This document shows positions 9,542 through 49,349 of a stretch of 64,000 bases of DNA, one piece after another. Made by a program: the position numbers and the translations under genes. Each line of letters starts with the position of its first letter. Position 1 is the first letter of the stretch. This DNA is from a virus. The stretch is from positions 38,754-102,753 of the IMG/VR virus record IMGVR_UViG_3300042391_001456. One strand, given 5' to 3'. Under the pieces are notes generated by a model that did no database searches, was not told the DNA's origin, and was given only the letters and a program-made list of their open reading frames with translations.

Positions 9542-9766
9542 TTATTTATCAATTATTTGGTCAATTTTTTCGTCACGAATTTCAGATTTAGATTTAATGA
9601 CCGTTAATCTACTCTCAGAAATAACATCAACTTCATCATTATAATCATCACCTAAATATTCAATTACTTCATCCTCGGAATTTGCTAAGTAAACACCACA
9701 AACACAATCCCATCCCATTTCTACATTGGTTAGGACATAGATATTTTTACCTTTTAAGTCTATCAT
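9542..9766 (-). CDS. hypothetical protein with C-terminal RDEKIDQII tag
   Basis: 74 aa ORF ending SEIRDEKIDQIIDK. Confidence 0.65.
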   Translation of the reverse strand: MIDLKGKNIYVLTNVEMGWDCVCGVYLANSEDEVIEYLGDDYNDEVDVISESRLTVIKSKSEIRDEKIDQIIDK

Positions 9767-9936
9767 TATTTCAATACCATATATTTAACACCATCTACAA
9801 TTTTGGTAACATATTTACCAGTTTCTTTTTTCTCAACATTTTTAGATGCTCTTTTAGTCGCAACTTTACCGGATTTAGATTTCTCTACTTCACCATACTT
9901 TTGTTTGATAACTTCTTTCATTGAAAATCTTTCCAT
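9766..9936 (-). CDS. small basic hypothetical protein (56 aa, not in ORF track)
   Basis: MERFSMKEVIKQKYGEV...VDGVKYMVLK; its stop overlaps the next start; TATATTTG upstream at 9969-9962. Confidence 0.6.
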   Translation of the reverse strand: MERFSMKEVIKQKYGEVEKSKSGKVATKRASKNVEKKETGKYVTKIVDGVKYMVLK

Positions 9937-9994
9937 AATTGATAATGTTTAATTGTTTCTACAAATATAATAAAACTTTTTTAATATATAATAA

Positions 9995-10753
9995 ATGATT
10001 AATGAAAATAAAATGTGGTATAAAACCATACCAGAAATTATAAATTGGTTAGATAGTAAATCAAGCTTACCATGGATCTGGATTGATACAGAGACTAGCG
10101 GACTCGGTGGTCCAAAAAAACAACAACTTACTCAAGTTTCAGCAATTTCAACTCAATATGATTTTAATTCTAATTCTTTTATTGAATTAGATACTTATGA
10201 TCAAAAAATAAAATTAACAGATGATATAAAATCTAGATATAATTCACCTGGTGATACAAGTAGAAGAATATTGAGTTTTAATCATTATGGATCAGGCCAA
10301 TATAAATGGAGAAATGAAGAAGAAGTAGTTAATGAGTTTTTTAATTGGTTGGAAAGATATGAGCCATGTTTATTTGTGGCTCAGAATGCTGGTTTTGATA
10401 TGAATATGTTATCTGGTAGATTTGAACACAAAATAACTAATGAGGTATTTGATACTAAGATGTTAATTCAATTATATTATTTACCACTTATTCAAAAATT
10501 AGCTGAGACTGATAGTAAATATAAAGATTTAATCAATTTTATTGGAACATCTAGTAGAGATAATGGACTTATTTCTTCTTCTTTATCTAAAATTGGACCA
10601 GCACTTGGCTTAAATATGAGTGGTTATCACGATGCTTTAACAGATTGTAGATTGACTATGAATATGTATTTAAAAATTGTTGATTTTCTAAAAGAAAATA
10701 AATCGGTTGATATAATGAAGTATCAAACTGATAGAATAAAAGTTATTAGATAA
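9995..10753 (+). CDS. DEDDh 3'-5' exonuclease (DnaQ-like)
   Basis: WIDTETSGL, AQNAGFD, DTK, HDALTD motifs. Confidence 0.85.
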   Translation: MINENKMWYKTIPEIINWLDSKSSLPWIWIDTETSGLGGPKKQQLTQVSAISTQYDFNSNSFIELDTYDQKIKLTDDIKSRYNSPGDTSRRILSFNHYGSGQYKWRNEEEVVNEFFNWLERYEPCLFVAQNAGFDMNMLSGRFEHKITNEVFDTKMLIQLYYLPLIQKLAETDSKYKDLINFIGTSSRDNGLISSSLSKIGPALGLNMSGYHDALTDCRLTMNMYLKIVDFLKENKSVDIMKYQTDRIKVIR

Positions 10754-10755
10754 TA

Positions 10756-11370
10756 ATGGATAATTTATTTAAAAGAGGTAGATCGTTAATTGATAAAGAT
10801 ATTGTTACTATTAAAGTGCCATTCATAAACTTTGATGGTAAAGAAGATTTTGGTTTATTACAAGTACATAAAGATATTAGTGAAGAAGTTATTAATATCT
10901 TCAATGAGATAAAGAATATTGGTTTCCCAATTTTCAAAGTTGAAACCGTTGATAATTATGATTATGATGATGAGAAATTAGCTGATGGTAATATTACATC
11001 TAGTTATAATTTTAGATTTGTTAGTGGGTCTACTAAATTAAGTGATCATTCTATTGGATTGGCAATTGATATAAATCCGATGCAGAATCCTTGGATACAC
11101 ATATCAGCATTGAATAAGTATATTTATAAACCAGGTGAAAAAGGAACAATAGAGTCTTCTTCTGAAGTGGTGAATATTTTTAAGAAGTTTGGTTGGTCTT
11201 GGGGTGGTGATTGGAAAAATCCAGATTATCAACATTTTTTTAAAGGTGGTGATATTAATAAGAATATTAAGAACAAATTATATATTGATTTGGGAATTGA
11301 TAATCCATATCAAAGTTCTAATAAGGTCTTTAATTTCAAAGACTTTATCAAAAGTGTTATCAAACGTTAA
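10756..11370 (+). CDS. M15-family peptidoglycan peptidase (endolysin-like)
   Basis: SYNFR...LSDHSIGLAIDINP...WGGDWKNPDYQHF. Confidence 0.85.
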   Translation: MDNLFKRGRSLIDKDIVTIKVPFINFDGKEDFGLLQVHKDISEEVINIFNEIKNIGFPIFKVETVDNYDYDDEKLADGNITSSYNFRFVSGSTKLSDHSIGLAIDINPMQNPWIHISALNKYIYKPGEKGTIESSSEVVNIFKKFGWSWGGDWKNPDYQHFFKGGDINKNIKNKLYIDLGIDNPYQSSNKVFNFKDFIKSVIKR

Positions 11371-11406
11371 ACTTATAGAATATCTAATATAAAATAGTTA
11401 ATCAGA

Positions 11407-11709: not shown

Positions 11710-12690
11710 ATGGCAAATGAAATGGACGATCTATTTAATGGCGGATTAGACAGTAAAATGGATTTTTTAAACGAGCAAAAAGGAAGTACTAAAAACAATG
11801 ATGGAATCTACCGAGTAGATTTATCAAAAGTTAAGGACAAAAAAAGAGGATGGAGATCTGTAGTGAGATTTTTACCTAATTTAACTAAAGAGAGTAAAGT
11901 TGGTGAATTAGCAGTTGAGAAAATTACTCACTATGTTGATATCAAAAATCCTAAAGAATTGAGTGGATGGTTTGATTCTCCAAAAAATTTCAACGAAAAA
12001 TGTGCATTAACTGATTTGTATTACACTATGCAAAACTCTAAAAATGCAGTTTTAATTGAAAAATCAAAACAATTAAAGTATTCAAAAAAGTATTATTCTT
12101 ATGTACTTGTAATTGAAGATGAGCAACAACCAGAATTAGTTGGTAAAACTATGATCTTCCAATACGGTAAAACAATTAAAGATAAAATTTCACAAGAGAA
12201 AAACGGAGAAATCTCAGGAGTTCCTTGTAATGTTTTTGATTTAGCTGAGGGTAAAGATTTCGTAATGATTGTTAAAGAAATTCAAACTGGTGATGAAAAA
12301 TACCCAGATTATAAAATGTCTACTTTTAAAAGTGATACAACTTCTTTACCAATTTATTTTAAAGACAAAGGAGCATTCAAAAACGTACCAACAACAGAAG
12401 TGGATGGTAAGTTAAGAGTTACATCTGAAGCTCAATCAAAAGTTAGAGATTTCTTGTTAGATAGAGAACATGATTTAGAAGAATTCGCACCTAAAAAGTT
12501 AAGTGATGATCAAAATGGAAAAATTACTGAGATTATTAATTTCTTAACAGGAAAATCTTCTCAAACTTTCGCTAAGACTGAGACAAAACCATCATCCGAT
12601 GATTTTGATTTTGATGATAGTTTTACACAAAAAACAACATCTACTACATCAGTAGAGGCTGAAGAAGATGATTTTTTTGGTGATTTCTAA
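11710..12690 (+). CDS. single-stranded DNA-binding protein, T4 gp32-like
   Basis: VVRFLP, YYSYVLVIED...PELVGK.MIFQYGKTI, FDLAEGKDF, YPDY, acidic aromatic C-tail. Confidence 0.88.
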   Translation: MANEMDDLFNGGLDSKMDFLNEQKGSTKNNDGIYRVDLSKVKDKKRGWRSVVRFLPNLTKESKVGELAVEKITHYVDIKNPKELSGWFDSPKNFNEKCALTDLYYTMQNSKNAVLIEKSKQLKYSKKYYSYVLVIEDEQQPELVGKTMIFQYGKTIKDKISQEKNGEISGVPCNVFDLAEGKDFVMIVKEIQTGDEKYPDYKMSTFKSDTTSLPIYFKDKGAFKNVPTTEVDGKLRVTSEAQSKVRDFLLDREHDLEEFAPKKLSDDQNGKITEIINFLTGKSSQTFAKTETKPSSDDFDFDDSFTQKTTSTTSVEAEEDDFFGDF

Positions 12691-12714
12691 TAACAATTAA
12701 AATTATAAAATTTT

Positions 12715-12745
12715 AAAACCTGACTTAAAAAGTCAGGTTTTTTTT
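12715..12745 (+). terminator. intrinsic terminator
   Basis: aaaacctgact-taaaa-agtcaggtttt followed by a T-run. Confidence 0.85.
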
Positions 12746-12836
12746 GTGCTCAATAATTTATATAAAAAATCCACTCTTTTTAAAAGAGAGCTTTTATCTA
12801 CAATATATACACTTAGATAAAAAATAAATAAATTAA

Positions 12837-14960
12837 ATGAAACCAGTTTTAATTGTAGAAAATTCGACTAATTCCTTAATTAAGGAATCTGTAGCTAAGA
12901 ACGATTATATATTAGGTGGTATTTTCACTGAATTCGGAGTTAAAAACCGTAATGAAAGAATTTACACAGCTGATAAATTTCTTCCAGCTTTACAGGAGAT
13001 GAATGAAAGAATGTCTGGATTAGGAGCCGTTTACGGTGAATTTGATCATCCAGATGTTTTTGATACTTCATTATCAAGAGCTTCTCACATAATTACAAAA
13101 GCTAATTATGTTCAGGAATCTAATCACGTTGCTGGTGAAATCAGATTATTAAGTACTTATTGGGGTAAAGAAGCTAAGGCGCTTGTCGATGACGGGTGTC
13201 CTGTTTTTGTTTCTTCTAGAGCAGCAGGTATTACTGAATCTGATGGATCAGTATCTCTTAAAAAATTATTTACTTATGATATCGTTGCTGACCCTGGATT
13301 TGCATCTGCAAAGATGAGTGTTAAGGTCTTAAATGAGTCATTAGGTTATGATAATCCACAATCTAACTTTAGGATATATGAAATGTCCGATGAGTCAAAA
13401 ATAAATGATCTATTTAACATGAATAAAAATGAATTTGTTACCAAGCAACAATTAACTGACTATTCTAAATATTTAGTTAATGAATTAGCTTCTACTAAAA
13501 AAGAAGTTAAAACTGCTATTTCTAAAGGTAATTTAACACCTAAGAAATTAGAGCAACTACTTGAGTATTATGATGAGTTAAATACTACTAATACACAAGT
13601 TGTTAAGTATTTAGATTATTTAGCTGAAAAAGTTCAAATTATGGTTAATGAGAATAAGTCTTTGAAAGAAACAACAGACAAACTTATTAAACACAATGAC
13701 TATTTAGCTGAAAATCTTGAAAAAGCTGTTAATTACTCTGAGTATTTAGCTGAAAATTTAGATAAGAATATTGCTTATTCTGAATATGTAGCTGAGAACT
13801 TAGATAAAAACATCTCTTATTCTGAGTATATCGCTGAGAACTTAGATAAAAATATTGCTTATTCTGAGTATATCGCTGAGAACTTAGATAAAAATATTGC
13901 TTATTCTGAGTATATCGCTGAGAACTTAGATAAAAATATTGCTTATTCTGAGTATATCGCTGAGAACTTAGATAAAAACATCGCTTATTCTGAGTATATC
14001 GCTGAGCACGTTGATAATAATATTGCGTATTCTGAATATTTAGCTGAGCACGTTGAGGGAAATATCGCTTATTCTGAGTATATCGCTGAGAATTTAGATG
14101 ATAACATCGCTTATTCTGAGTATATCGCTGAGAATTTAGATAAATCTATTTCTTACTCTGAAATGATTACTGAAACACTTAAGGGTGGTAAAGTATTCGA
14201 ATCATATGAAAATTTCCCAACATTACAAGATGCTGGAATTTCAGCAATTGAATCTGAAAAAGAAGAAGTTGAAGAAAGAGAAGAAGAAAGAGAAGATTTA
14301 GGTATCTCTCACATTTCAGACGAAAAAGAATATTACACAGAAGAAGAAAAAGAAGAAAATATTGAAAATTTAGAAGAAGAAAAAGAAGAAGAAGAAGATT
14401 GTACACCTGCTTATGAAGAAAAAACATTTAATGGTGATACTGATACTGAGCTGTCTTTATCTATCGATAAACTAATTGAGGAAGCTAAAAAACGTAAAGT
14501 TTCTGAAACATCAGATTTGAATTTCTTGAAATTCTTATCTAAATCACAAGTTGATAGTTTTTATGCATTAACTAATGAAGAGCAAGAAACTGTTAAACTT
14601 CACATAAACGAAAGAAGTTACTTCACAGGAAAAGAAGTTCTTACATTAATTTCTGAAGCACTATCAACTAAAAATGAAACTCTTGAAGAAAGAGTTATCA
14701 GAATGATGCCTGAAAACACTAAGGCTATCTGGAATCAGTTAAATGAATCTGCTAAAAAATCTTTCCTTTCACAGGCTAGATTATACCCAGAGGAAATGTT
14801 GATGACTGAATCACAAGTTGATCATTTCTGGGGAACTAGAAACATCAAAACAAATGAATCTGTAACTAAAAAATTAGTTTCTCATGATGCTTTAATTCAA
14901 GAAGATAAATTATCTGATAATGAAGTTAGTGCTATTATGGAAAGGTTCAAAAATATTTAA
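12837..14960 (+). CDS. prohead protease (gp21-like) fused to a scaffold/core domain
   Basis: KNRNERIY, GEFDHP, VSSRAAG, TYDIVADPGF in the N-terminal ~170 aa; long helical repeat and acidic region behind; directly upstream of the capsid gene. Confidence 0.88.
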   Translation: MKPVLIVENSTNSLIKESVAKNDYILGGIFTEFGVKNRNERIYTADKFLPALQEMNERMSGLGAVYGEFDHPDVFDTSLSRASHIITKANYVQESNHVAGEIRLLSTYWGKEAKALVDDGCPVFVSSRAAGITESDGSVSLKKLFTYDIVADPGFASAKMSVKVLNESLGYDNPQSNFRIYEMSDESKINDLFNMNKNEFVTKQQLTDYSKYLVNELASTKKEVKTAISKGNLTPKKLEQLLEYYDELNTTNTQVVKYLDYLAEKVQIMVNENKSLKETTDKLIKHNDYLAENLEKAVNYSEYLAENLDKNIAYSEYVAENLDKNISYSEYIAENLDKNIAYSEYIAENLDKNIAYSEYIAENLDKNIAYSEYIAENLDKNIAYSEYIAEHVDNNIAYSEYLAEHVEGNIAYSEYIAENLDDNIAYSEYIAENLDKSISYSEMITETLKGGKVFESYENFPTLQDAGISAIESEKEEVEEREEEREDLGISHISDEKEYYTEEEKEENIENLEEEKEEEEDCTPAYEEKTFNGDTDTELSLSIDKLIEEAKKRKVSETSDLNFLKFLSKSQVDSFYALTNEEQETVKLHINERSYFTGKEVLTLISEALSTKNETLEERVIRMMPENTKAIWNQLNESAKKSFLSQARLYPEEMLMTESQVDHFWGTRNIKTNESVTKKLVSHDALIQEDKLSDNEVSAIMERFKNI
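13734..14153 (+). repeat. 10 tandem 42-bp coding repeats (YSEYIAENLDKNIA)
   Basis: Visible at both DNA and protein level. Confidence 0.95.
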
Positions 14961-15044: not shown

Positions 15045-16736
15045 ATGTCACACATTAGAATAGACAATGCGAAAGCAACTAAGAAATGGGCTCCAGTTTT
15101 AGAAAACATGGGAGTAACTGGTGATAGAGTTGAATGGATGGCTGAATATGCTGAGTTTCACTCTATTAACGAAAATGCGTATGTAAACGCTGCAAACGTA
15201 GCAGGTATGGGAGCTATAACAGCTGCACAACCAGGATTATATGCTGGTACTACTACAACTGCTGCTCAAGGTACATATGGTCCTTTATCAGGTTCAGGAG
15301 ACGTAGGTCAAAACCTTTTACCAGTAGCTATGAAAATTGCTGCTCAAACAATCGGTTTAGATTTAGTAGCAGTTAAACCAACTCCAGGTCCGAAAATCGA
15401 TTTACTTTATGTAGATTTCGTTTATGATGACGTTGATCAATTACAAAACGAAAGACCACAAGTATTTAAATTAGCAAGTGTTAACGAAACTTTGGTAAAT
15501 AACTTAACTAATTTGGTTAAAGCTGAAGGTAGATTAGTAACTGGTGGTATCAGTGGTACTAGAGTTTTTGTTGGTATTACACAATCTAACGCATTTAGCG
15601 CAACTTCAGAATCTTCGTTCCCAGCAACTGGAAAAGCAGGTGTTGTTGAATTTTTAGGTTTCTCAAGAATTGATGGATATCCAATGTTTAAAGCTTATAG
15701 ACAAGCTAATACAGGTGGTCAATTTAACTACTTCTCATTTGATTCAAAATTAAATACATTTGACTCATCTAGTGCTATGTCTGCTCAGATTAAAACAATC
15801 GCTGGATATACTTTCTCAGCTGCTCCTTCAATTGAATTAGTATCTGCATTAGAAGATCATATCCCAGGTTTCTCTGCAAACTGGACAGGAGCAAAAGCAT
15901 CTGGTGATTATCCAATGGATCGTTACTCTGATGATACATCTTATTCAGGTGTTATCGGACCAAAAATCTCTTCTAAAACTATCGCAGTTGGTACTATCGA
16001 AGTATCTTCAGCTTTAAGAAGAACTGAAATCGAAGATATTAAAGCTAACACTGGTATGGATATCGTTCAAAAAATGGAATCTATCCTTGTTAATGAATTA
16101 TCTCAAACAATTTCTAAACAAATCGTTGCTAAGATTTTTGAAATGGGTGAATTAAACAGAAAAAGTAGTGCTCCTTTAAGATCAGGTGTTTCTTCTTTCG
16201 TTTCTGCTTCTGCTTCAACTATCTTTGACTTGAACACTAATTATGCGTCTACTTCAGTTTCTGGTGAAACTACTCACGCTGTTCAAAGAAAATTGATTAC
16301 TAAAATTGCACACGCTTCTAACTTCATCGCTACTGAAGGTCGTGTAGGACCAGCTCAATACATCATTACAAATGGAGGTTTAGCTGCAGCACTTCAAGAT
16401 ATCGCTGGTTATACTATTAACCCAGTTAAATCTAAATTAAACGGACAAGGTCAATTATACCCTGTAGGTTCAATCGGAGATATTTCTATCTATGTTGATC
16501 CATACATGAAGTATAATGATAACAGAATCGTTTTAGGAAGAAAAAACAACGCTGATCAACCAGGTATCATTTTCGTACCTTATTTAATGGCACAATCTAT
16601 CTCAGTTATTTCTGAAGCGACTTTCGCTCCAAGAATGTTACTAAGATCAAGATATGCAGTTGCTGAAGTTGGATGGTATCCACAAAAACAATTTATGACG
16701 ATTGTTGTTGAAGATGCAAATCAATTATTAAACTAA
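15045..16736 (+). CDS. major capsid protein, T4 gp23-like
   Basis: KKWAPVLE, LDLVAVKPTPGP, MDIVQKMESILVNEL, IYVDPY, GIIFVPY, ATFAPRMLLRSRY; codon usage typical of a highly expressed gene. Confidence 0.92.
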   Translation: MSHIRIDNAKATKKWAPVLENMGVTGDRVEWMAEYAEFHSINENAYVNAANVAGMGAITAAQPGLYAGTTTTAAQGTYGPLSGSGDVGQNLLPVAMKIAAQTIGLDLVAVKPTPGPKIDLLYVDFVYDDVDQLQNERPQVFKLASVNETLVNNLTNLVKAEGRLVTGGISGTRVFVGITQSNAFSATSESSFPATGKAGVVEFLGFSRIDGYPMFKAYRQANTGGQFNYFSFDSKLNTFDSSSAMSAQIKTIAGYTFSAAPSIELVSALEDHIPGFSANWTGAKASGDYPMDRYSDDTSYSGVIGPKISSKTIAVGTIEVSSALRRTEIEDIKANTGMDIVQKMESILVNELSQTISKQIVAKIFEMGELNRKSSAPLRSGVSSFVSASASTIFDLNTNYASTSVSGETTHAVQRKLITKIAHASNFIATEGRVGPAQYIITNGGLAAALQDIAGYTINPVKSKLNGQGQLYPVGSIGDISIYVDPYMKYNDNRIVLGRKNNADQPGIIFVPYLMAQSISVISEATFAPRMLLRSRYAVAEVGWYPQKQFMTIVVEDANQLLN

Positions 16737-17863: not shown

Positions 17864-19699
17864 ATGGCAGAAGAAACAAATCTACCAAAAATAAAAATAT
17901 CTAAAGAATTAGCATCGGTATTACAAAAAACTGAAGACTTAGGTGATTATATCTCATTTGAAATAATTTGTATGGGTGATGATGATAGTGAGCATTTTAA
18001 TGGTTTAAAAATTACAGATGTGAATGTTTCAAAAAAAGATTTTTGTTTTGAAGTAACTACATTAGATGGTAAGAAAATGGATATGAAGTGTGGTAATTTC
18101 ATTAGATACTACTTTCATAACTATTTTACACCAAGTGATATTCAAAACTTCGTAAACCTTTATAATAAAGTTAAAAATGGTGAGTCAGTGGCTGATGAAA
18201 AAATTCCAATCAATGTTTCAAAGTTTGAATATAATCCGTTAGATCCGAGATCTACTTTTCTTTCACTTGTTACTAAAACATATCCACATGGACACGAAGA
18301 TGAAGTTCTTCAATTCTTACCACAATTGGATAAAGATATCGTTGGAAACTATTACAAAATAATTGGAGATAATCCAACAACAATGTTTACATGTCATTTA
18401 GATACTGCTGATAGAAAACAGGCTGTTACAAGACTTTATTCTATACAAGTTGATGATCAAGAACATATTGTTACCGATGGTACAACTGTATTAGGAGCTG
18501 ATGATAAATCAGGAACAACAGTTATGTTATATATGATGGCAAAAAATGTACCAGGTCTTTATTACTTCTTTATCGGAGAAGAAAGGGGTGGTATTGGATC
18601 TAGAGCTTTAGCTGATAAATATGATGAAGTTTCTTATTTAAAAAATATTAAAAGATGTGTTTCTTTTGATAGAAGAAAGACTATTTCAGTTATCACCTCA
18701 CAAGCAGGTGGTGTTTGTTGTTCTGATGAATTTGCAAATGCTCTTTGTGATGAGTATAATAAAAATGGATTAAATCTTAAACCAGACCCAACTGGAGTAT
18801 TTACTGATTCGGCTTCATTCATTGATGATATTTCAGAATGTACAAATGTTTCTGTTGGATATCTTAACGAACATACTGGTAAAGAAATTCAAAATATGGA
18901 TTATTTAATAGATTTATGTAAAGCATCTGTTAATGTTAATTGGGATTCATTACCAACTGTTAGAACTGTTCAAGATAGAGCAGCTATGAAAGAAATGATT
19001 AATAGAGTAAAATCTTCAAATAAAGAATTTGTTGATTCGTTAAAAGGTGTTAATTTGGATAAAACTATTTCCACAGATTATGGAAATGTATATGTTAATT
19101 TTGATTTAGATAATGAGTCTCTTGATAACATCATTGAAAGTTTAACAGAGTTGAGAAAGGTAATGAGATTACACAAAAAGCCAGCTTCTTGTTTATTCGA
19201 TGAAACTTATTTACAAATATTTTTAGGTAAAGAAAGTGGTCAAAAAATAACAACACTTGATATTGAAGATGATGATAAATATGAGTCTCAAAAATTAAAA
19301 AAATATGAACAATTTTTAACTGAAAAATACTGGGATGATGAAGATGGTCAAGATGAAGATGAAGAAGATAACGATAAAGAACAAGATATAGAACATCTTA
19401 AATATCTTTTAAGGCAAATGTTGACTAAAGCAGGTATTAAGAATTCTACAATAACTAATAATGGATTGAATTTAAAAATTCAAATTATTCCACCATCGTA
19501 TGGGATGATTGACTATTTTTATAAATTAGATGATATTATACACATCTATGAAACAATTAAAAAGTTTGATAAAGATATTTTAGTTGATTTTGATTTAGAG
19601 TGTGATATTTGGGAAACTAAAAAAATAGAACCTCTTTTAATTTTCAATTTCTATTCTAACCAAGATGATTATGAAGATGAATCTGGTTTACCATTTTAA
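17864..19699 (+). CDS. M20/M28-like zinc peptidase with N- and C-terminal extensions
   Basis: CHLDT, LGADDKSG, GEERG, SFDR, TDSA, GY.NEHT. Confidence 0.8.
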   Translation: MAEETNLPKIKISKELASVLQKTEDLGDYISFEIICMGDDDSEHFNGLKITDVNVSKKDFCFEVTTLDGKKMDMKCGNFIRYYFHNYFTPSDIQNFVNLYNKVKNGESVADEKIPINVSKFEYNPLDPRSTFLSLVTKTYPHGHEDEVLQFLPQLDKDIVGNYYKIIGDNPTTMFTCHLDTADRKQAVTRLYSIQVDDQEHIVTDGTTVLGADDKSGTTVMLYMMAKNVPGLYYFFIGEERGGIGSRALADKYDEVSYLKNIKRCVSFDRRKTISVITSQAGGVCCSDEFANALCDEYNKNGLNLKPDPTGVFTDSASFIDDISECTNVSVGYLNEHTGKEIQNMDYLIDLCKASVNVNWDSLPTVRTVQDRAAMKEMINRVKSSNKEFVDSLKGVNLDKTISTDYGNVYVNFDLDNESLDNIIESLTELRKVMRLHKKPASCLFDETYLQIFLGKESGQKITTLDIEDDDKYESQKLKKYEQFLTEKYWDDEDGQDEDEEDNDKEQDIEHLKYLLRQMLTKAGIKNSTITNNGLNLKIQIIPPSYGMIDYFYKLDDIIHIYETIKKFDKDILVDFDLECDIWETKKIEPLLIFNFYSNQDDYEDESGLPF

Positions 19700-19801: not shown

Positions 19802-20167
19802 GGGGGCGTCATTAGATTCGCCTAGCAGTGTGTAGGTGGTTATGCAGGAATCGGGTTTTCATATGTCCGATCAATAAATTATATGATAACGTCGTAAATG
19901 GCAAAACAAATGAAGTAGGAACTCGTGAAGATTTAGTAGCGGCCCTAAACGCAATCAAAGCTGAAGAGCTTGAATTAGTTTAATTAAGAGAAACTAATCA
20001 AAAAAATTCTCCGACTGTATCACACAGTAAATGTGAAACCAGAATTGTTAGAGTGATGGGTTAATTCAACTAACTATTTTGTAAGTTTAGAAAAATTTAC
20101 TATTCCTGTGAATGAGTAATTACAAACAGCTGATTAGTACACCCGGGGCGGTTCCGGGTCGCTTCCA
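19802..20167 (+). ncRNA. ssrA: tmRNA
   Basis: 5' GGGGGCG pairs with 3' CGCTTCC-A, including the G3:U alanine determinant; 5' GATTCG; T-arm ACCCGG/CCGGGT; internal tag ORF 19900-19983 after GTAAAT; about 366 nt; own promoter and terminator. Confidence 0.9.
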
Positions 20168-22416: not shown

Positions 22417-22666
22417 TCCACCAAATCCATTTCTTGTTAATTCATCGACTAATCAGTCAATTCCACTTCTTATCAATTCATCGACTGGTGAATCGGCACT
22501 TATAGTTGACTCGGATGGTAATGTTATAGTTAAGAAATTAGTTTTATTGGATGATAAAACTGGAAAGAAATGGGAGGTAAAAATTTCTGATGGTGAAATT
22601 TACATGGAGCCTCTTGAAAAATCTGATAAAAGAGATTTTAAAATAAAAAAGATTTTAAATGACTAA
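22406..22666 (+). CDS. hypothetical protein with C-terminal RDFKIKKIL tag
   Basis: 86 aa; overlaps both neighbours. Confidence 0.6.
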   Translation: MAINPPNPFLVNSSTNQSIPLLINSSTGESALIVDSDGNVIVKKLVLLDDKTGKKWEVKISDGEIYMEPLEKSDKRDFKIKKILND

Positions 22667-30238: not shown

Positions 30239-30307
30239 AGTATTATATATTAAGTAACATGTCTCTAAACAAGGATTATTTAATATATAGTTAAAAAATT
30301 TATTACA

Positions 30308-30706: not shown

Positions 30707-30723
30707 AAAAATATATATAACTT

Positions 30724-31392: not shown

Positions 31393-31407
31393 AAGGTCTC
31401 TTTTTTT
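31378..31407. terminator. bidirectional terminator
   Basis: aaaaagagacctt-aa-aaggtctcttttt. Confidence 0.85.
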
Positions 31408-36928: not shown

Positions 36929-38260
36929 ATGAAGAATTTGAAAACATTAAATGAGTTAGAAACGGAAAACTTTTTAAATTCAATTTTTAAAAGTGAAATT
37001 ACAATATTTGAAGACATACAAGGTAGTAAAATATGGGTAAATTGGGATGGTGATAAATTTCAAATAAAACCAAAATCAATTAATAGCGAATCTATTAATC
37101 TAATAGATCTAGCTATGCAAAATTATTATAATCCAGCAATAGATTATTTCAACTCATTAGATTTAAGAGTTAAATCACTTTTAAATAGAAAGTGGTGGTT
37201 TTGTTTTGAATATTTTCCAGATAATCAACCAGCAAATATTGAATATGATAAAGTCCCTAAAAATAAATTAATACTAACAACCATTTTTAAAAATGGTAAA
37301 TATGATATTAATATTGAAGAAATTGATGAATATTCTAGATTATTGAATGTTGATATGATACCTGTTATATTTAATGGTATTCTTACCGAAAAGATGAAAG
37401 AAGCTATAAAATACTTTTTAAATACAAGTGAGGAAGATTTAGAGTATGTATTTGGTGATAAATCATTCACCTTCTTCTTTTATAAAATATTAAATCCTCT
37501 TTCAGAAAATTCATTTTTAATGGATGGCGACTTTCAAAAAAACATAGAAAAATTAATAATTAGATCACAAGGAAATGATGTTTCATTTCAATTATTAAAT
37601 CCTCTTTATAAAAAGATGAACGATTCTAATAAGACTGATTATGTTGAGATTTATTCACTACTAATAATAAATTTTTTAAATTTTTGCCAATCTGTAAATT
37701 TAGACGATCTAAAATTAAAAGGTTATAAAAGAGATGAAATTTATATTAATTTAATTTCAAAATTATATAATTTCTATTTAAGTGACGTAAAAGAAGACCT
37801 CATAAGCTTTGATTTTAATATACCAGAGTTCTTTGATAAGGAGAAATTTAAAATAAACAAAGAGTTGATATCTAATAAGATGACGAAATCTTACATAAGT
37901 GAAAATCCAAAACTAGAATACATATTCAAAATTATACTAAGCTCCTTTAATATAAAGAGAAAAAAAGCTATTGGACTTTTTAGTGAAAATACAGTTAAGT
38001 TATTTAATCTATTCGTTGATAAAATAAATGGAATTATTGATATGCATTTAAATAAAACTATAGAAATAGAATTAACCAGAACTGGTTTATTAGACTTTGA
38101 TGAGTATATAGATTTTAAAGTTGATACGGATGCATCAGGTCAAATATACCCTGATATATTTGATGAGATACAAAAAGGTGAAGAAGAAGAGAAGAAAAAG
38201 AAAGGAAAAGGTGGTAAAATGCCAATGCCTGGAGATGAATCTAAAATGTCCTTAAAATAA
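36929..38260 (+). CDS. hypothetical protein with degenerate RNA-ligase-like N-terminal domain
   Basis: IFEDIQGSKI at the position of motif I (EKxxG), FCFEYF, IPVIFNG, IEKLIIR. Confidence 0.5.
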   Translation: MKNLKTLNELETENFLNSIFKSEITIFEDIQGSKIWVNWDGDKFQIKPKSINSESINLIDLAMQNYYNPAIDYFNSLDLRVKSLLNRKWWFCFEYFPDNQPANIEYDKVPKNKLILTTIFKNGKYDINIEEIDEYSRLLNVDMIPVIFNGILTEKMKEAIKYFLNTSEEDLEYVFGDKSFTFFFYKILNPLSENSFLMDGDFQKNIEKLIIRSQGNDVSFQLLNPLYKKMNDSNKTDYVEIYSLLIINFLNFCQSVNLDDLKLKGYKRDEIYINLISKLYNFYLSDVKEDLISFDFNIPEFFDKEKFKINKELISNKMTKSYISENPKLEYIFKIILSSFNIKRKKAIGLFSENTVKLFNLFVDKINGIIDMHLNKTIEIELTRTGLLDFDEYIDFKVDTDASGQIYPDIFDEIQKGEEEEKKKKGKGGKMPMPGDESKMSLK

Positions 38261-38421
38261 TGAAAGAGACCTCTATTAAAGCTATTTGGACTAAAGAAAT
38301 GCATGAAGATCTAATTAAACAAAAATCTTTAAATTTAGATTTTGAAAAACATTTAGTATCAGTATTAAAGGCTGAATTGAGAAAGAATAAGATTAATAAA
38401 ATTTTCAAAAAGAAGAACTAA
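38260..38421 (+). CDS. 53 aa gp23-like capsid peptide with C-terminal RKNKINKIF tag (not in ORF track)
   Basis: MKETSIKAIWTKEMHEDLIKQKSLNLDFEKHLVSVLKAELRKNKINKIFKKKN; ATG overlaps the upstream TAA. Confidence 0.55.
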   Translation: MKETSIKAIWTKEMHEDLIKQKSLNLDFEKHLVSVLKAELRKNKINKIFKKKN

Positions 38422-40228: not shown

Positions 40229-40257
40229 AAAAAAGACATCAAATGATGTCTTTTTTT
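40228..40257. terminator. bidirectional terminator
   Basis: aaaaaaagacatc-aaat-gatgtcttttttt. Confidence 0.8.
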
Positions 40258-41062
40258 ATTTTATACTAAACCAACAATATTGTCTATGCCAAGAAAAATT
40301 AGTTTCTTTTAAGAAAAATCTCATATCATTTGGGAAAGTCATTAAAATAATACCTGGTTGATCTGCATTATTACCTCTACAAACAATAATTTTATCAGGG
40401 TCAATTCCCGGTTCTACAATAAATAACATACCATTTATCATACCATTCTCATCTAAATTATTAATAAGTGATGGATATTTACTAATTACGTTATTTCCAA
40501 CTAAAACAGATTTTCCGGAACCAATTCTACCATATTGAGCGATTATATTAGAAGCCATCATTATTTTAGTAATCAATCTACGAGAATTAATTTCATCATT
40601 TTCTGAATTGGTTTTATTAGGATCATTAGTTGGTATAAATGTTAAAGATGATGTTGGAAGATTATATAATGTTTTGGCATTTTGAGTTTGTTTTTCTAAA
40701 AAGTCAATAACTTGAGAATAAACATCTTCATAACTAATAAATTGTTTACCTGTAACATTCATAGACATTATTTTAGGAGCAACAACTCCCATATATTGAG
40801 TTACATTCTTATATTGAGAAGAAACATCTAAATCTTTTCTTTCTGGTAAAATATGTCTATTTTCCCATTCAGACTCATCTTTATCATCTAATAAAATATC
40901 TATAGCTAAATCTCTATTACGAGATTTTACCTCTCTCATATATTCTTCATCGTCTTCAGATATCATCTCCATATACATAATCTGTGATTGTGGAAGAGAT
41001 TTTTTATCCAATTCTTCTTTGAATGAAGTTATTAATTTTAATTTATCTTTAAAAGTTATCAT
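40256..41062 (-). CDS. degenerate major-capsid-protein paralogue fragment
   Basis: RRLITKIMMASNIIAQYGRIG and RGNNADQPGIIL match the MCP segments RKLITKIAHASNFIATEGRVG and RKNNADQPGIIF. Confidence 0.75.
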   Translation of the reverse strand: MITFKDKLKLITSFKEELDKKSLPQSQIMYMEMISEDDEEYMREVKSRNRDLAIDILLDDKDESEWENRHILPERKDLDVSSQYKNVTQYMGVVAPKIMSMNVTGKQFISYEDVYSQVIDFLEKQTQNAKTLYNLPTSSLTFIPTNDPNKTNSENDEINSRRLITKIMMASNIIAQYGRIGSGKSVLVGNNVISKYPSLINNLDENGMINGMLFIVEPGIDPDKIIVCRGNNADQPGIILMTFPNDMRFFLKETNFSWHRQYCWFSIK

Positions 41063-41804: not shown

Positions 41805-41870
41805 TTTGATTTTATTTTTATCTTTTATAGATATTTTTATTATCTTTGTTTAATTATAAAATAATTATTT

Positions 41871-42275
41871 ATGAATATTGTTGGATGGAGAGAATTATTT
41901 CATTTCCCAGAACTTAAACTAGTGAATATACCTGGTAAAATAGATACTGGTGCTTGGTCTAATGTCTTACACTGTGATGAAATAAATTTAGTAGATAATA
42001 AACTAAATGTTAAAATTGGCAATAACAATTATATATTTGATAAATTTAAAATTATAGATGTTAAAAGTTCATTTGGTGATGAACAAGAAAGATGGAGTAT
42101 AATAACACCGATTTTATTAGGAAATAAAGAGTATAAATTACAAATTTCATTAAGTAATAGAGAAAAAATGAAATATCCACTTCTAATTGGTAGAAGGTTT
42201 CTGCAAAAATTTAAATATATAGTAGATGTAAATAAAGAATGTATTAATATAAATGATCACTTTAAAAAAATATAA
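41871..42275 (+). CDS. retropepsin-like protease of the RimK-associated (putative ATP-dependent Zn protease) family
   Basis: VGWRE, KIDTGA.S.LH, VKSSFG..QER, LSNREKMKYPLLIGRRFL. Confidence 0.88.
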   Translation: MNIVGWRELFHFPELKLVNIPGKIDTGAWSNVLHCDEINLVDNKLNVKIGNNNYIFDKFKIIDVKSSFGDEQERWSIITPILLGNKEYKLQISLSNREKMKYPLLIGRRFLQKFKYIVDVNKECININDHFKKI

Positions 42276-42789
42276 TTATTTCACTGGAACTCCAAATGAT
42301 GTTTCAAATTCGGTTTCTAAAATTACTAAGTTTTTAGAACTTGATGGTTGGAATTCTATTCTATTTTGTAGAGAAAATTCTAATATAAAACATCAAATGC
42401 CTAATAATTTTATTTTTAAAAATCTGGAACATTTTAGAGAATTAGTTAGTGAACCAGGAAATTTATTCAGATGTAATCTAATAGTATTAGATTTATGGGG
42501 ATTTAATTTAATAGAAATTGATAAATTTAAATGCATTTGTGATGATTTAAATATTAAACTAATAATATTAGCAAAGGAATTCAATTATAAAACTAGTGAC
42601 GATGTTTCTGACTACCATGTTATAACTAAATATAATCATGGTATAACACCAACATCATTATCATTCCCAATAAAATCAGAGACTATAATAACCGAAAGAA
42701 TAAGTAATTGGACATCCACTTTAGATGATTTGAAGAAATCTTATATTAGAGACAAGAAAATAGATATTCTTTTTGATGATGATGAATAA
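42253..42789 (+). CDS. hypothetical protein, possibly a degenerate DnaB/RecA-like fragment, with C-terminal RDKKIDILF tag
   Basis: NLIVLD...ICDDLNIKLIILA resembles DnaB DLIIVD...LAKELNIPVI; no intact Walker A. Confidence 0.5.
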   Translation: MITLKKYNYFTGTPNDVSNSVSKITKFLELDGWNSILFCRENSNIKHQMPNNFIFKNLEHFRELVSEPGNLFRCNLIVLDLWGFNLIEIDKFKCICDDLNIKLIILAKEFNYKTSDDVSDYHVITKYNHGITPTSLSFPIKSETIITERISNWTSTLDDLKKSYIRDKKIDILFDDDE

Positions 42790-42864: not shown

Positions 42865-44025
42865 ATGAGAATTACTAAAAAGTTTTTACAATTAACTAGA
42901 TTTACATACCCTCACGGAACTGAATCCGGATTAATTAAAAATCTACCACAAAATGTTCAAGAAGATGAATATGGAAACTTCTTTCTTCTAATAGGTGAAA
43001 AACCATCCACTATGTTTACTTGTCACTTAGACACTGCTGATTCTACTCAAAAAAGAGTTAACCACGTTTTTGATGGTAATATAATTAGAACAGATGGCAC
43101 ATCAATATTAGGAGCTGATGATAAAGCTGGAATGACTGTTATTTCTTATATGATAAATAAAGAGGTTCCCGGATTATATTATTTCTTTTTAGGAGAAGAA
43201 GTTGGTTGTGTTGGATCTAGAAAAGTTTCAGCAACCTGGACTTCAAATCCATTTTCAGAACATATCACTAAATGTGTTTCTTTTGATAGAAGAGGTACAG
43301 ACTCAATTATCACTTATCAAATGTTTGGTAGATGTTGTTCAGAAACTTTCGCATTAGAATTAGCAAAAAGAATGAACTCTACCGACAATGGTATGAAAAT
43401 GGCTCCAGATAATACAGGTATTTTAACAGACTCTGCTAAATTTATGAGTTTAATTCCAGAATGTACAAACATTTCTGTTGGTTATTATAATGAACACACT
43501 CATCGCGAAAGTCAAGATATAGAATTCTTAAAAAGATTGTGTAGAACAGTTGTTAGCATTGATTGGGAAACATTACCAATTGAGAGAGACCAAAATTCAA
43601 TCGATGATGATTATGATGATTATGATGATTGGGGTTTCTGGGGAGGTGGATCATACTCCGGGAGTAAATCTAATAATAAAGTTGAATATGTATCTGATGA
43701 TTCTAATTGGAATGTTGATAACTATACTCATGTTTCTTTGGATGGTGTAACTAAAAAAGTTTATATAAGTAATTATCAAGTGGATTTTGAAAAAGAAATA
43801 ATCTATGAGTGGTTATTTTTAACAAATGATTGTTCTGAATTAAAAGAAATTATATGGAATGGTCACTCACTTTATTCAAAAAGTCCGTCTGGTAAAGTTG
43901 AATATATTGGAAATAGAAATGATTTAATGGATCATATCGAAGAGTTGAAAAGTATTCCAAGAGAAGAAATATCAGAGACGATTAAATTAAAGAAAAAAAA
44001 AACTGATTATGGATTTAACTTCTGA
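42865..44025 (+). CDS. M20/M28-like zinc peptidase, paralogue of 17864..19699
   Basis: TYPHG, MFTCHLDTAD, LGADDKAG, PGLYYFF.GEE, CVSFDRR, ECTNISVGY.NEHT shared with the paralogue. Confidence 0.82.
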   Translation: MRITKKFLQLTRFTYPHGTESGLIKNLPQNVQEDEYGNFFLLIGEKPSTMFTCHLDTADSTQKRVNHVFDGNIIRTDGTSILGADDKAGMTVISYMINKEVPGLYYFFLGEEVGCVGSRKVSATWTSNPFSEHITKCVSFDRRGTDSIITYQMFGRCCSETFALELAKRMNSTDNGMKMAPDNTGILTDSAKFMSLIPECTNISVGYYNEHTHRESQDIEFLKRLCRTVVSIDWETLPIERDQNSIDDDYDDYDDWGFWGGGSYSGSKSNNKVEYVSDDSNWNVDNYTHVSLDGVTKKVYISNYQVDFEKEIIYEWLFLTNDCSELKEIIWNGHSLYSKSPSGKVEYIGNRNDLMDHIEELKSIPREEISETIKLKKKKTDYGFNF

Positions 44026-44311
44026 AAAATTTGAACACATACATTTTCCACACATTCTATTTTTTGGATTAACACAGAAATTAAAATTAAAAGATAGAAT
44101 TTTAGTCTATAAAGGTGGTGAAGATGGTGATCTAATAGTTGGTAAAGAATATGTTATTGAAGAAAAAAATTATTCACCAAATAAAGAAACTACAAGAGTT
44201 GCTGTTTGGACTTGCAAAGATGAAAATAATAAAATAGTTATTATTGATAAAAATAACTTTGTAACTCTAATAGATTTTAGGAATAGTAGAATAGATGATA
44301 TTATAAACTAA
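44009..44311 (+). CDS. hypothetical protein with C-terminal RNSRIDDII tag
   Basis: 100 aa. Confidence 0.55.
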   Translation: MDLTSEKFEHIHFPHILFFGLTQKLKLKDRILVYKGGEDGDLIVGKEYVIEEKNYSPNKETTRVAVWTCKDENNKIVIIDKNNFVTLIDFRNSRIDDIIN

Positions 44312-45625: not shown

Positions 45626-45856
45626 ATGTTAGAAGAAATAAAACAATTAAATATTAATGAAGAAATTCTAAAGAATTATGATATCAAATCTATACAGGTT
45701 ATGAGTGATGGTAACCTTGAACCAGCTATACATATTCTTTTTAACAACGGTATTATATTAAATTCAAATATTCATAGATATGAAATTATTGAACTAATAT
45801 CTTCTATAAAGAGTGATGGTCGTAACGATAAAATTAATAAAATTTTAAATGTATAA
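45626..45856 (+). CDS. hypothetical protein with C-terminal RNDKINKIL tag
   Basis: 76 aa. Confidence 0.55.
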   Translation: MLEEIKQLNINEEILKNYDIKSIQVMSDGNLEPAIHILFNNGIILNSNIHRYEIIELISSIKSDGRNDKINKILNV

Positions 45857-46034: not shown

Positions 46035-46046
46035 TGAAATAAAATT

Positions 46047-46807: not shown

Positions 46808-47159
46808 TGATTTTTTCGATAGTTTTAAAAAGCCTGAAAAGAAATGGGATCATAAAATAAGGGTAGTTCATTTTAAAAAAGAACCATATGATATTTATAT
46901 TGGTCGTTTACCAAATGATGGTTTCAATAAGTGGGCTTATCCCAAAGAATTAAGAGAGAAATTTGGAGAAGATACTCCTCGTAAGGTTATTATTGACGCT
47001 TATGAGGAGTATTTACTTTCTAATGAAGAATTAATGAATTCTCTTTATGAGTTAAGAGATAAAACTCTTGGTTGTTGGTGTAAAAATGAAGGTGGTGGTG
47101 GAAAGTCTTGTCACGGAGACATATTAGTTAAATGGGTTAAAAAGAAATGTAATGGATAA
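46800..47159 (+). CDS. DUF4326 family protein
   Basis: YDIYIGR, KWAYP, LRDKTLGCWC, CHGDIL. Confidence 0.85.
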   Translation: MSDDFFDSFKKPEKKWDHKIRVVHFKKEPYDIYIGRLPNDGFNKWAYPKELREKFGEDTPRKVIIDAYEEYLLSNEELMNSLYELRDKTLGCWCKNEGGGGKSCHGDILVKWVKKKCNG

Positions 47160-47490
47160 TTTAGACTTATTAGAGTGTTGTCAATCTGTATTAAACTATC
47201 TTCAAGATAAAGATGAAGAATTAATTAATTTTACTGAATCAGAAACTATGAAAGAGATGGATAGAGTTCTTGTAAAAAATAATTTCGAATCATCTGTATT
47301 TGGCACGAACATGATGAATTTCATGCGTTGGTTATCAAATGAATATAATTTTGATAGTCCTGATATTTATGATGACGGTCGTTCTTATTTTTCAGATGGT
47401 TTCAAATTTACAAAGGCTCCTGCAAAAACTTTTCTGAAAGCCGTCATAAGAGAGATAAAAATAAAAGAATTGTTATGCCAGAAGGGGTAG
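47152..47490 (+). CDS. hypothetical protein with C-terminal REIKIKELL tag
   Basis: 112 aa. Confidence 0.55.
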   Translation: MDNLDLLECCQSVLNYLQDKDEELINFTESETMKEMDRVLVKNNFESSVFGTNMMNFMRWLSNEYNFDSPDIYDDGRSYFSDGFKFTKAPAKTFLKAVIREIKIKELLCQKG

Positions 47491-48278
47491 AAATAAGAAT
47501 AATGTCAGACTTTATCAATAAGAATTGTAGTGATAAAGTTTTTGAAAAATCTTTCCATGTATTAAAAGGAAACAATCCAGAAGAATTTAAACTATTAGAT
47601 GGTGAATTTAAGTTAAGTTCAGATTTCAACGGTAAAGAATTATTAGTATATGTATATCATGATGTTACATCTTTTTCTCAAAGGGTTAATGTTTCTGTGT
47701 TTATGGGAATGTCTGGAAATTGGAAATGGGTAAGAACTTCAGAATGGAATTCTACTAAATTTATTCGCCTTCGATTTGATACAATAGATGGTTGGTCTTT
47801 AATATTATATGGTCTTTATATGGGACCTAAATATAAAATTGGTGGATTTGGAACAAAAAGAGGACCTGACTCAATAAAAAATTTTGAAAAGTTTAAATCA
47901 AACATTTTGGAAAATTTAAATAAAAAAATATTTGATAAACCAATCTGTGAGGCAATTTTAGACCAAAAGTACTTTAATGGAATTGGTAATTATCTCAGAA
48001 GTAGTTTATTATATTATTTAGATATTAATCCTTTTCAAGTTGCTAGAACCGCATTAATAAACCACCCACAAATAATAGAGATGTGTAGAGATGTTCAATT
48101 AAAATCATATGAACTGAATGGTGGTCAATTAAAAGACTGGCGTTCACCATTCGATACTGATTATGAAGCTTTCAGAGATTGGGTTTATTATCAAAAGGGA
48201 AACTCTTGTAAAGATGGAACAGGCAGGACTTTTTGGTATGATCCTAAATGGCAAAACTTTTCACCTTATAAGATATAA
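47475..48278 (+). CDS. Fpg/Nei-family DNA glycosylase
   Basis: N-terminal MPEG, GKEL, MGMSG, H2TH motif LDQKYFNGIGNYLRS, GRTFWY. Confidence 0.9.
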   Translation: MPEGVEIRIMSDFINKNCSDKVFEKSFHVLKGNNPEEFKLLDGEFKLSSDFNGKELLVYVYHDVTSFSQRVNVSVFMGMSGNWKWVRTSEWNSTKFIRLRFDTIDGWSLILYGLYMGPKYKIGGFGTKRGPDSIKNFEKFKSNILENLNKKIFDKPICEAILDQKYFNGIGNYLRSSLLYYLDINPFQVARTALINHPQIIEMCRDVQLKSYELNGGQLKDWRSPFDTDYEAFRDWVYYQKGNSCKDGTGRTFWYDPKWQNFSPYKI

Positions 48279-48285
48279 AATAAAT

Positions 48286-48768
48286 ATGGCAAAGATTATC
48301 AAACCAGATTCAAATTCACAGACTTTTTCAGGACCTAAAATTTTCCTAGCAGGATCCATTGAAATGGGAAAAGCTATTGATTGGCAATCAGAAGTAGAAA
48401 ATCTTCTTAGTGGACATAATGTTACTGTTTATAATCCTAGAAGAATTTCATGGGATATGAATTGGGAACAATGTGAGACTAATCCTGAATTTAGAAATCA
48501 AGTGAATTGGGAAATGAATAACATAGATAACTCTGATATTATTTTTATGAATTTTGTAGAAGATACAATGTCTCCAATATCATTATTAGAACTTGGTTAT
48601 ATATCCGGTATAAATCCTTCCAAATTGATAGTTTGTTGTCCAAAAAAATTCTGGAGAAGAGGAAATGTTCAGATAGTATGTTCTAGAGAATCTATACCTC
48701 TATTTGATAATATAGAAGAAGCTATGGCTTCTTTACTCACTAGAGTTGAAAAACTTACAAATATATAA
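48286..48768 (+). CDS. nucleoside 2-deoxyribosyltransferase-like protein
   Basis: IFLAGSI, WQ, NPRR, QVNWE, SPISLLELG, GNVQIVC; start placed at 48286. Confidence 0.85.
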   Translation: MAKIIKPDSNSQTFSGPKIFLAGSIEMGKAIDWQSEVENLLSGHNVTVYNPRRISWDMNWEQCETNPEFRNQVNWEMNNIDNSDIIFMNFVEDTMSPISLLELGYISGINPSKLIVCCPKKFWRRGNVQIVCSRESIPLFDNIEEAMASLLTRVEKLTNI

Positions 48769-48770
48769 TA

Positions 48771-49349
48771 ATGTTTAATGATGATTTAAGTTTAATAGTT
48801 GGTTGTAATAATAGTGGTAAAACCTCTACTTTATATTCTATATCCGAAATTCTAAACATCTATAATAACTTAGCTTGGATTTACTTTAATAAAAACTATG
48901 AATATGGTGAGAATTTTAAAAAAGTTTCAAACTATCAATTTCGAATTGATTCATATGGATTAGGAGAAATTCCATTTACTCATTTATCAAATGATATTAA
49001 AACTATTGAAATCATCAAAGAATATATACAAAAAGAAAAAATTGATTATTTGATTATTGATGATTTTCATATTATGAATTCATACTTACAGAAAATAATT
49101 TTGGATTTACCAGTTAAGAAAATAATTTCATTTAGTTATGATCTTTATGGATATGATGATATAGAGACAACAAATAATATCAGTGGGTATAATAAAAAAT
49201 ATTATTATTTAAATATTTATGATCAGATGAGTGTTAAAACCATAAGAATAGATGGTAGTGAAGAAATAATATTATTAGATGATTATATAAAATCTCTTAA
49301 AAGAGAAACAAAATTAAACAATTTATTAAATGGAAAAGAAGAATATTAA
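48771..49349 (+). CDS. P-loop (RecA/DnaB-like) protein with C-terminal RETKLNNLL tag
   Basis: GCNNSGKT (Walker A) and IDYLIIDD (Walker B). Confidence 0.6.
   Translation: MFNDDLSLIVGCNNSGKTSTLYSISEILNIYNNLAWIYFNKNYEYGENFKKVSNYQFRIDSYGLGEIPFTHLSNDIKTIEIIKEYIQKEKIDYLIIDDFHIMNSYLQKIILDLPVKKIISFSYDLYGYDDIETTNNISGYNKKYYYLNIYDQMSVKTIRIDGSEEIILLDDYIKSLKRETKLNNLLNGKEEY

Follow-up and report, generated by a model that had tools for sequence, protein, structure and literature searches.

What does it mean when ten small proteins with no evident similarity end in the same short peptide, and is there a partner that reads it? The question is raised by a 64,000-nucleotide stretch of viral DNA (the window), positions 38,754 to 102,753 of the IMG/VR record IMGVR_UViG_3300042391_001456. 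A sequence-only reading of the window had noticed a shared terminal tag on about ten unrelated small proteins, and had proposed an amphipathic helix that recruits a library of accessory proteins to one hub. The tag is real, modular, under protein-level selection, confined to one expression class and present throughout a clade of huge phages.

The tag in the window and in related phages

The strict pattern R-[DNE]-x-K-[IL]-x-x-[IL]-[ILF] was scanned for in six-frame translations and at the level of open reading frames (ORFs). All ten C-terminal motifs that had been listed were recovered, 0–6 residues from the stop; they had been filed under the starts of their ORFs, not under the positions of the motifs. 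The tagged ORFs are given below in window coordinates unless stated, together with two internal copies. Scores are from a position-specific scoring matrix (PSSM), and lengths are in amino acids (aa).

9542–9766, minus strand: tagged ORF, 74 aa, ending ...IRDEKIDQIIDK; motif at 9551–9577, PSSM 29.8
21727–22416, plus strand: tagged ORF, 229 aa; RDEKIDKLI at 22378–22404
22406–22666, plus strand: tagged ORF, 86 aa; RDFKIKKIL at 22631–22657; orthologues end ...DKRE[FY]KLNKILK
22659–22982, plus strand: tagged ORF, 107 aa; RDLKLDKLL at 22953–22979, with the stop directly after
38260–38421, plus strand: tagged mini-ORF, 53 aa, of the RKxKIxxIF subtype; motif at 38380–38406
42253–42789, plus strand: tagged ORF, 178 aa; RDKKIDILF at 42748–42774
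44009–44311, plus strand: tagged ORF, 100 aa, the weakest member; RNSRIDDII at 44279–44305, PSSM 11.7
45626–45856, plus strand: tagged ORF, 76 aa; RNDKINKIL at 45821–45847
47152–47490, plus strand: tagged ORF, 112 aa; REIKIKELL at 47449–47475
48771–49349, plus strand: tagged ORF, 192 aa, with weak P-loop kinase-like matches; RETKLNNLL at 49302–49328
40889–40915, minus strand: weak internal copy RDLAIDILL, residue 50 of the 268-aa ORF at 40256–41062, PSSM 9.3
54809–54835, plus strand: internal copy RDIKISKVL, residue 246 of the 555-aa helicase at 54074–55741
Record positions 10033–10257, outside the window: an extra tagged ORF of the ...LGI type, the sole copy of form B (see below) in the record

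The first of the two internal copies had already been pointed out and is present. A weak NRDEKL at 44606, proposed alongside it, has no tag-level score, no separate check of it having been made.

Among the 120 ORFs of the 102,753-bp record there are 11 strict matches, 10 of which end 0–6 residues from the stop. When each protein was shuffled 2000 times, the mean number of matches was 0.38 in total and 0.0125 at C-termini, and shuffling only the last 25 residues gave 0.015 C-terminal matches. The C-terminal enrichment over shuffled controls on which the tag's reality turns is thus ten observed against 0.0125 (binomial P 3e-15). 

The scale of the phenomenon is seen best in LR745206 (634,780 bp), one of the Al-Shayeb megaphages (PMC9723777). 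The strict pattern has 100 matches in this whole genome, 84 of them no more than 10 residues from the protein end. A position matrix made from these matches finds 110 C-terminal tags in 938 ORFs, and 0–2 in shuffled proteins; the tagged total is 110–136 of about 950 ORFs (12–14%). An unbiased listing of tail-enriched three-residue patterns ranks R..KI first (p about 1e-77). The ten proteins of the first count therefore stand, but "about 10" falls far short of the number that such a phage can carry. In the logo R1 is invariant, position 2 prefers D over E over N, K4 is present in 92%, and I or L is found at position 5, N, K or D at 6, I or L at 8, L, I or F at 9 and D, N or K at 10, with the stop most commonly right after position 10. 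The RKxKIxxIF subtype accounts for eight or nine ORFs of 41–83 aa in LR745206.

The tag comes in two forms. Form A is R-[DEN]-x-K-[IL]-x-x-[IL]-[ILF]-polar, and form B is R-[EDN]-x-K-[LI]-x-x-[LI]-G-[IL]-COOH. Form B is found on 59 ORFs in the relative we call G004, where it ends exactly at position 10 in 49 of the 59, on 22 ORFs in LR745206 and on one in the window's record. Together the two forms tag 14% of the ORFs in LR745206 and 17% of those in G004, and the ratio of A to B differs by lineage.

Distribution was scored with a degenerate DNA pattern and a reversed-pattern control, plus protein-level scans. A search of related phages had been suggested as a check, and it succeeded: the tag-positive records are that of the window, LR745206, LR756502, G001–G004, G006–G008, G010 and G023. 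G005 has a sparse variant without the acidic position 2. LR756501 (735 kb), G009 and G011–G021 are tag-negative in these scans. Three tagged genes adjoin the capsid module (21727, 22406 and 22659), and throughout the clade their orthologues are tagged too; in G004, G023 and G000 most orthologues of tagged genes retain the tag, in either form. A literature search found no description of the motif; the sequence-only reading had likewise known of no described function for it.

Selection, structure and expression of the tagged class

The codons for R, D, E, N, K, I and L within the motif follow genome-wide usage, and synonymous codons vary normally. Because of this match the tag is taken to be under selection at the level of protein. 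The bodies to which it is attached are unrelated, as had been claimed: BLASTP at E 1e-3 sorts those of the 110 tagged proteins of LR745206 into 109 clusters. A Pfam match was obtained for a single one of 109, a paralogue of the capsid protein. The tagged proteins of LR745206 have a median length of 104 aa, and they make up 29% of the ORFs of 75–100 aa and none of the 146 of 250–500 aa. They are acidic and soluble, and transmembrane (TM)-like segments are found in fewer of them than of untagged small proteins. The UVR motif (PF02151) was considered as a source of the tag and rejected: neither the ten tagged proteins nor 109 of LR745206 have a Pfam match to it, and in the UVR register, R-D-x-[IL]-x-x-L, the hydrophobic positions are shifted by one residue.

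For the 178-aa protein (42253–42789) there are 64 homologues in the databases, with identities as low as 33%, and relatives in IMG/VR with as little as 25%; even at 25% the tag is the most conserved block of the family. The invariant block is L-K-K-S-Y-I-R-D-K-K-I, and 7 of the 14 invariant columns lie inside the tag. AlphaFold gives the protein a confident RecA/KaiC-like core (predicted local distance difference test, pLDDT, 87) that has no P-loop, and makes the tag the outer half of the last helix, where pLDDT drops. Its identification as gp55 was set aside, a PDB profile search having been empty and the fold being RecA/KaiC-like. In two AlphaFold models the motif juts out as the end of the C-terminal helix, along which confidence drops, as the proposal of a helix requires, and by helical-wheel reasoning R1, K4, I5, I8 and L9 are on one helical face.

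About 15% of motif copies are internal. That in the helicase is at residue 246 both in the window's record and in LR745206, and another is kept at residues 30–50 of a 151-aa protein encoded about 5 kb from the capsid gene in relatives. Others look as if a tagged mini-gene had been fused to the gene that follows it. Among the tagged proteins there are also pieces of head proteins. The product of 21727–22416 is a paralogue of the C-terminal half of the capsid protein (BLASTP, capsid residues 440–533, E 8e-12) to which the tag has been added; in LR745206 a 75-aa ORF consists of capsid-protein residues 494–539 and the tag, and an 83-aa ORF of a scaffold-repeat piece and the tag. It had been stated that the tag is absent from structural and core proteins. 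This holds in that none of the 146 ORFs of 250–500 aa is tagged, but not for the tagged capsid and scaffold fragments or for the conserved internal copies in the helicase and the 151-aa protein.

C-tagged genes form tight arrays on one strand, the gap upstream of a gene having a median of -1 nt, and 56% overlap the next gene. Where the spacer is at least 40 nt, a TAnnTTTG box, the Bacteroidota -7 consensus, is found ahead of about 10 of 26 tagged genes. The same box pattern precedes tagged genes in LR745206. In the window the examples are:

Upstream of 9936, minus strand: TATATTTG box, heading the operon of the 74-aa tagged ORF
41830–41870, plus strand: Bacteroidota-type -7 box TATCTTTG, ahead of the operon 41871–42789, which holds a tagged gene
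Ahead of the operon starting at 45115: a similar -7 box, TATTTTTG

From the tight packing and these boxes we infer that the tagged proteins are expressed early, by the host RNA polymerase, in a Bacteroidota host.

A second motif marks other genes. TTAATATATA is found 13–40 nt ahead of many start codons (at window positions 481, 1872, 5855, 9982, 16856, 17835, 30252 on the minus strand, 39682, 57551 and 60785, among others). Since the leaders would be very short, it suggests a phage-specific promoter, probably middle or late. It precedes 50% of the genes with the N-terminal peptide described below, about 18% of other genes and 1–3% of C-tagged genes.

Many unrelated proteins begin with the peptide M-K-x-[LI]-K-x-[FY]-[EDN] (the MKxLKxFE class), which is found on 52 ORFs in LR745206 and in the window at 5869, 7118, 7408, 8276, 8617, 36929, 55799 (minus strand), 56515, 57565 and other sites. 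This class resembles the capsid-targeting sequence of T4. The overlap between the 52 N-tagged and the 110 C-tagged ORFs of LR745206 is zero.

Possible readers of the tag

The motif is best explained as a protein-level address tag: an amphipathic helix of about 10 residues, at or beside the C-terminus. In a large clade of huge phages whose heads are T4-like, each genome has added this helix to more than 100 small proteins, acidic, soluble and unrelated to one another, which are probably early and probably produced in a Bacteroidota host. One common reader would handle them all by gripping the R1/K4/I5/I8/L9 face. We consider it probable that the tag is a docking tag read in this way by a single partner. 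The general idea of the sequence-only reading, that a library of accessory proteins carries an amphipathic helix for docking or degradation, is partly supported, as far as sequence can take it.

Which protein might be the reader? Within the docking-tag explanation the best candidate, put forward tentatively, is the phage's own ClpC with two ClpP paralogues. Two or three true ClpP genes are present in LR745206 and LR756502, together with the gene of a ClpC of 700 aa that has a UVR-containing M-domain and a GxGVGF ClpP-docking loop and lacks the Clp_N domain, in place of which there is a conserved short N-terminal peptide with an acidic run at its end. The short ClpC was found in all 11 of the tag-bearing records searched, and also in G005. 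No tags are found in records with full-length ClpC. In 80 IMG/VR loci with ClpC relatives, tags are found almost only beside the short form and no full-length-ClpC locus is tagged; one borderline match lies beside a differently truncated ClpC (locus L213). Tag-positive genomes mostly have two or three ClpP genes, with one match in G002 and none in G001. The tag-negative LR756501 has an Hsp100 with Clp_N, without M-domain or VGF loop, and no ClpP. Neither ClpC nor ClpP was found in the window's own record, which is 18% complete.

The neighbourhood of the short ClpC is also suggestive. In LR745206, LR756502 and about 15 IMG/VR loci the product of the gene directly upstream of it closes with a helix like the tag, ERRDE-I-IDEILNET..., and belongs to a family for which AlphaFold gives an Hcp/tail-tube-like fold; in G005 a different protein with a variant tag occupies this slot. 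The gene downstream of ClpP1 is tagged in LR745206 and LR756502. An accessible terminal peptide on unrelated proteins is what a degron or tether would be, and the tag ends 0–6 residues from the terminus where pLDDT falls, with form B anchored to the free C-terminus; an unfoldase and peptidase that could be its cognate pair are encoded by LR745206 and LR756502.

The ClpC is part of a conserved operon (LR745206 421687–425329; loci L160–L198) that encodes a 161-aa protein, a 201-aa protein, the protein with the Hcp/tail-tube fold and the N-domain-less ClpC. In the ClpC of the operon the N-terminal peptide, ...PDIKAALEDDDDD..., is conserved and the C-terminal tail is basic.

There are two ways in which Clp might use the tag. 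It could be a degron that would bring about the timed removal of early proteins, or a tether through which small proteins would act as adaptors that deliver bound targets. More than 100 early tagged proteins would then be coupled to the megaphage's own ClpC-ClpP1P2 in a network for targeted proteolysis, a possibility that we regard as doubtful. Its members would be either timed substrates or an adaptor library delivering host factors, for example defence proteins, for destruction; even pieces of the phage's own capsid and scaffold could be delivered likewise.

Several observations weigh against Clp. The association with ClpC rests on essentially one clade and is confounded by shared ancestry. 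Short N-domain-less ClpC without tags is found in G009 and G018, and ClpP and Hsp70 are also found in tag-negative huge phages. Some tag-positive records lack the Hcp-like protein that is encoded upstream of ClpC. The internal copies (about 15%) are more easily reconciled with a docking helix than with a degron that must be terminal. The tag motif does not occur in the reading frame of a putative transfer-messenger RNA (tmRNA) at 19802–20167.

Other candidate readers were set aside. Hsp70 and ClpP do not track the tag, both being present in tag-negative phages, and the co-occurrence of the Hcp-like, 201-aa ClpC-operon and DUF2201/VWA proteins with the tag is imperfect. No PDZ or S41 tail-specific protease is encoded. 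Profiling for what the tag-positive G008 and G004 have and the tag-negative G012 and G009 lack gave 38 candidates and no clear receptor among them; the best-conserved cluster of the 38 resembles tail genes. The Hsp70 of LR745206 (473636–475510; 832 bits) has the C-terminus ...SYEEV, which recalls the eukaryotic EEVD co-chaperone motif.

Could the tag do without a reader? It might be a self-contained helix for oligomerisation, hetero-association or the capping and stabilising of its body, spread by recombination among early cassettes or left over from one hyper-diverged paralogue family. Tagged genes do lie in arrays, often consecutively, the internal copies resemble fusions of adjacent cassettes, and profiling gave no receptor. 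We still find this rather unlikely, given the invariant Arg and single conserved face, which argue for a specific ligand, and the two discrete forms with their lineage-specific ratios. Against a single paralogous family stand the 109 clusters from 110 bodies and the different folds, RecA-like and Hcp-like, of the two bodies modelled. Docking of cargo on the scaffold or inner shell, for packaging into the prohead and later injection, is an unlikely role for the tag. A T4-type head module is present, several of the tagged proteins correspond to parts of the capsid protein or of the scaffold repeat, and the 151-aa protein with its conserved internal copy is encoded near the capsid gene in relatives. 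However, tagged genes avoid TTAATATATA, the motif that precedes the fibre gene and N-tagged genes, a separate N-terminal class like the T4 capsid-targeting sequence exists and never overlaps with the C-tag, and packaging 12–17% of all ORFs seems excessive.

The sliding clamp had been named as a candidate hub and is disfavoured. A toolbelt-binding motif like the C-terminal tails of T4 gp43, gp55 and gp33 has in its favour that the phage is T4-like, that the tag has a C-terminal [IL]-D-x-[IL]-[ILF] core, sometimes with an acidic tail, and that the principle is documented in T4 (PMC2988020). The C-terminal half of the LR745206 polymerase, encoded by a separate distant gene (130568–131992, minus strand), ends in ...SVVMDIFGGFK and has no R-D-x-K-I motif. 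MDIFGGFK is recognisable as a T4-like clamp tail, and the clamp is an unlikely reader because the polymerase keeps this tail of its own. The tag is also carried by more than 100 ORFan proteins without a link to DNA. The gp45 clamp models PF09116 and PF02916 have no match in G000 or LR745206, although a diverged clamp could escape them. Altogether we hold clamp binding to be very unlikely. (In the window the family-B DNA polymerase is split, and an N-terminal exonuclease/palm half of 522 aa is encoded at 51601–53169.) Membrane targeting, as by the C-terminal helices of MinD or FtsA, is highly improbable: such a helix would be C-terminal and amphipathic with Arg and Lys, as is the tag, but it would not typically have acidic or amide residues conserved at positions 2 and 6, or an invariant Arg amid its hydrophobic face. 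The bodies of the tagged proteins, moreover, are acidic, and they have TM-like segments less often than untagged proteins. Scarcely credible, finally, is a nucleic-acid element (promoter, terminator, recombination or coupling signal) translated by chance. The motif does lie where genes end, and 56% of tagged genes run into the next one, but it is always in the coding frame, its distance from the next start codon varies, and its Arg, Ile, Leu, Asp and Lys codons follow genome-wide usage, a result on which a motif at the DNA level is rejected.

Huge phages consist largely of small ORFan genes without any functional handle. One peptide that marks 7–17% of the proteome defines a class among them, of early, soluble, acidic accessory proteins. 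The tag predicts one central reader, and identifying this reader would open the accessory class to study. With the phage ClpCP as the reader, the tag system would be the first degron/adaptor network in bacteria to be encoded by a virus, and a proteolysis network of this kind would be a viral counterpart of degron systems or of systems like proteolysis-targeting chimeras (PROTACs). The tag is also a ready-made portable tag for Bacteroidota or phage biology.

The source phage and comparison with known systems

With a CheckV completeness of 18%, the record of 102,753 bp represents part of a phage whose genome is several hundred kb long. By its genes the window, which is AT-rich (GC about 27%), is a piece of a megaphage with a T4-like head, related to LR745206. 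Relatives of its capsid protein are found on at least 238 IMG/VR contigs from many metagenome datasets (by IMG/VR taxon IDs), with 68–75% identity for the best 80 of these; the clade is abundant. Among the genes of the window are helicases, thymidylate synthase, RNA-repair genes and the following:

11710–12690: gp32-like single-stranded DNA-binding protein (SSB)
12837–14960: prohead protease-scaffold fusion, a T4-type head gene
15045–16736: gp23-like capsid protein, a T4-type head gene

Further features were observed in passing. A collagen-repeat fibre gene (1389 aa), preceded by the TTAATATATA motif, lies beside GT9, GT1, GT25 and FkbM-methyltransferase genes (26069–36858), and the position of the fibre gene next to glycosyltransferases may point to glycosylation of the virion. 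Outside the window, beside the portal gene, the record encodes a full RNase II/R with RNB, CSD2 and S1 domains (E 2.5e-100; record positions 12579–14483, minus strand). An inactive protease paralogue at record positions 12117–12575 is unsupported (BLAST E = 1.1). The tmRNA-like gene proposed at window positions 19802–20167 is reported by neither ARAGORN nor Rfam; its putative open frame reads G-K-T-N-E-V-G-T-R-E-D-L-V-A-A-L-N-A-I-K-A-E-E-L-E-L-V. Acidic-aromatic tails in the style of SSB end both the gp32-like SSB (...EEDDFFGDF) and a 611-aa peptidase-like protein encoded at 17864–19699 (...EDESGLPF), which suggests a second docking code. In the 183-kb relative G008 (L240–L249) 13 proteins end in a common block of about 30 residues, HLLEEAL.D[FY]NEYY...LP..I.GYTYI, as at 58357–58875 and 87358–89095, a further C-terminal module present in many copies.

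How does the tag compare with terminal peptides already described? The clamp tails of T4 gp43, gp55 and gp33 (PMC2988020) are likewise short, interchangeable C-terminal peptides that dock unrelated proteins on one hub. They are hydrophobic and acidic, in contrast to R-D-x-K-I-x-x-I-L, they serve three to five clients, compared with more than 100 tagged proteins per genome here, and they include the polymerase, which in LR745206 has a T4-like tail of its own and no tag. The T4 capsid-targeting sequence is, like the tag, a terminal peptide that serves as an address label common to unrelated small phage proteins. Unlike the C-terminal tag it is N-terminal, is cleaved by the prohead protease and belongs to late genes, and tagged genes avoid TTAATATATA. 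It is the MKxLKxFE class, mutually exclusive with the C-terminal tag, that fits this description. The cargo-loading peptides of encapsulins and the encapsulation peptides of microcompartments are also amphipathic helices at the termini of cargo proteins that are unrelated to each other, and a single shell protein, HK97-like or of another fold, reads them; they mark a handful of enzymes, whereas the tagged genes lie outside the putative late class and no compartment is known. The degrons and tethers of AAA+ proteases (ssrA, the C-motif 2 of the MuA type, the XB of SspB for ClpX) differ from the tag in sequence, the N-domain that the phage ClpC lacks is normally the one that binds adaptors, and internal copies of the tag exist. 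They are similar to it in that a short C-terminal peptide brings many unrelated proteins to one unfoldase, and in LR745206 and LR756502 a complete ClpC-ClpP set is encoded by the phage itself.

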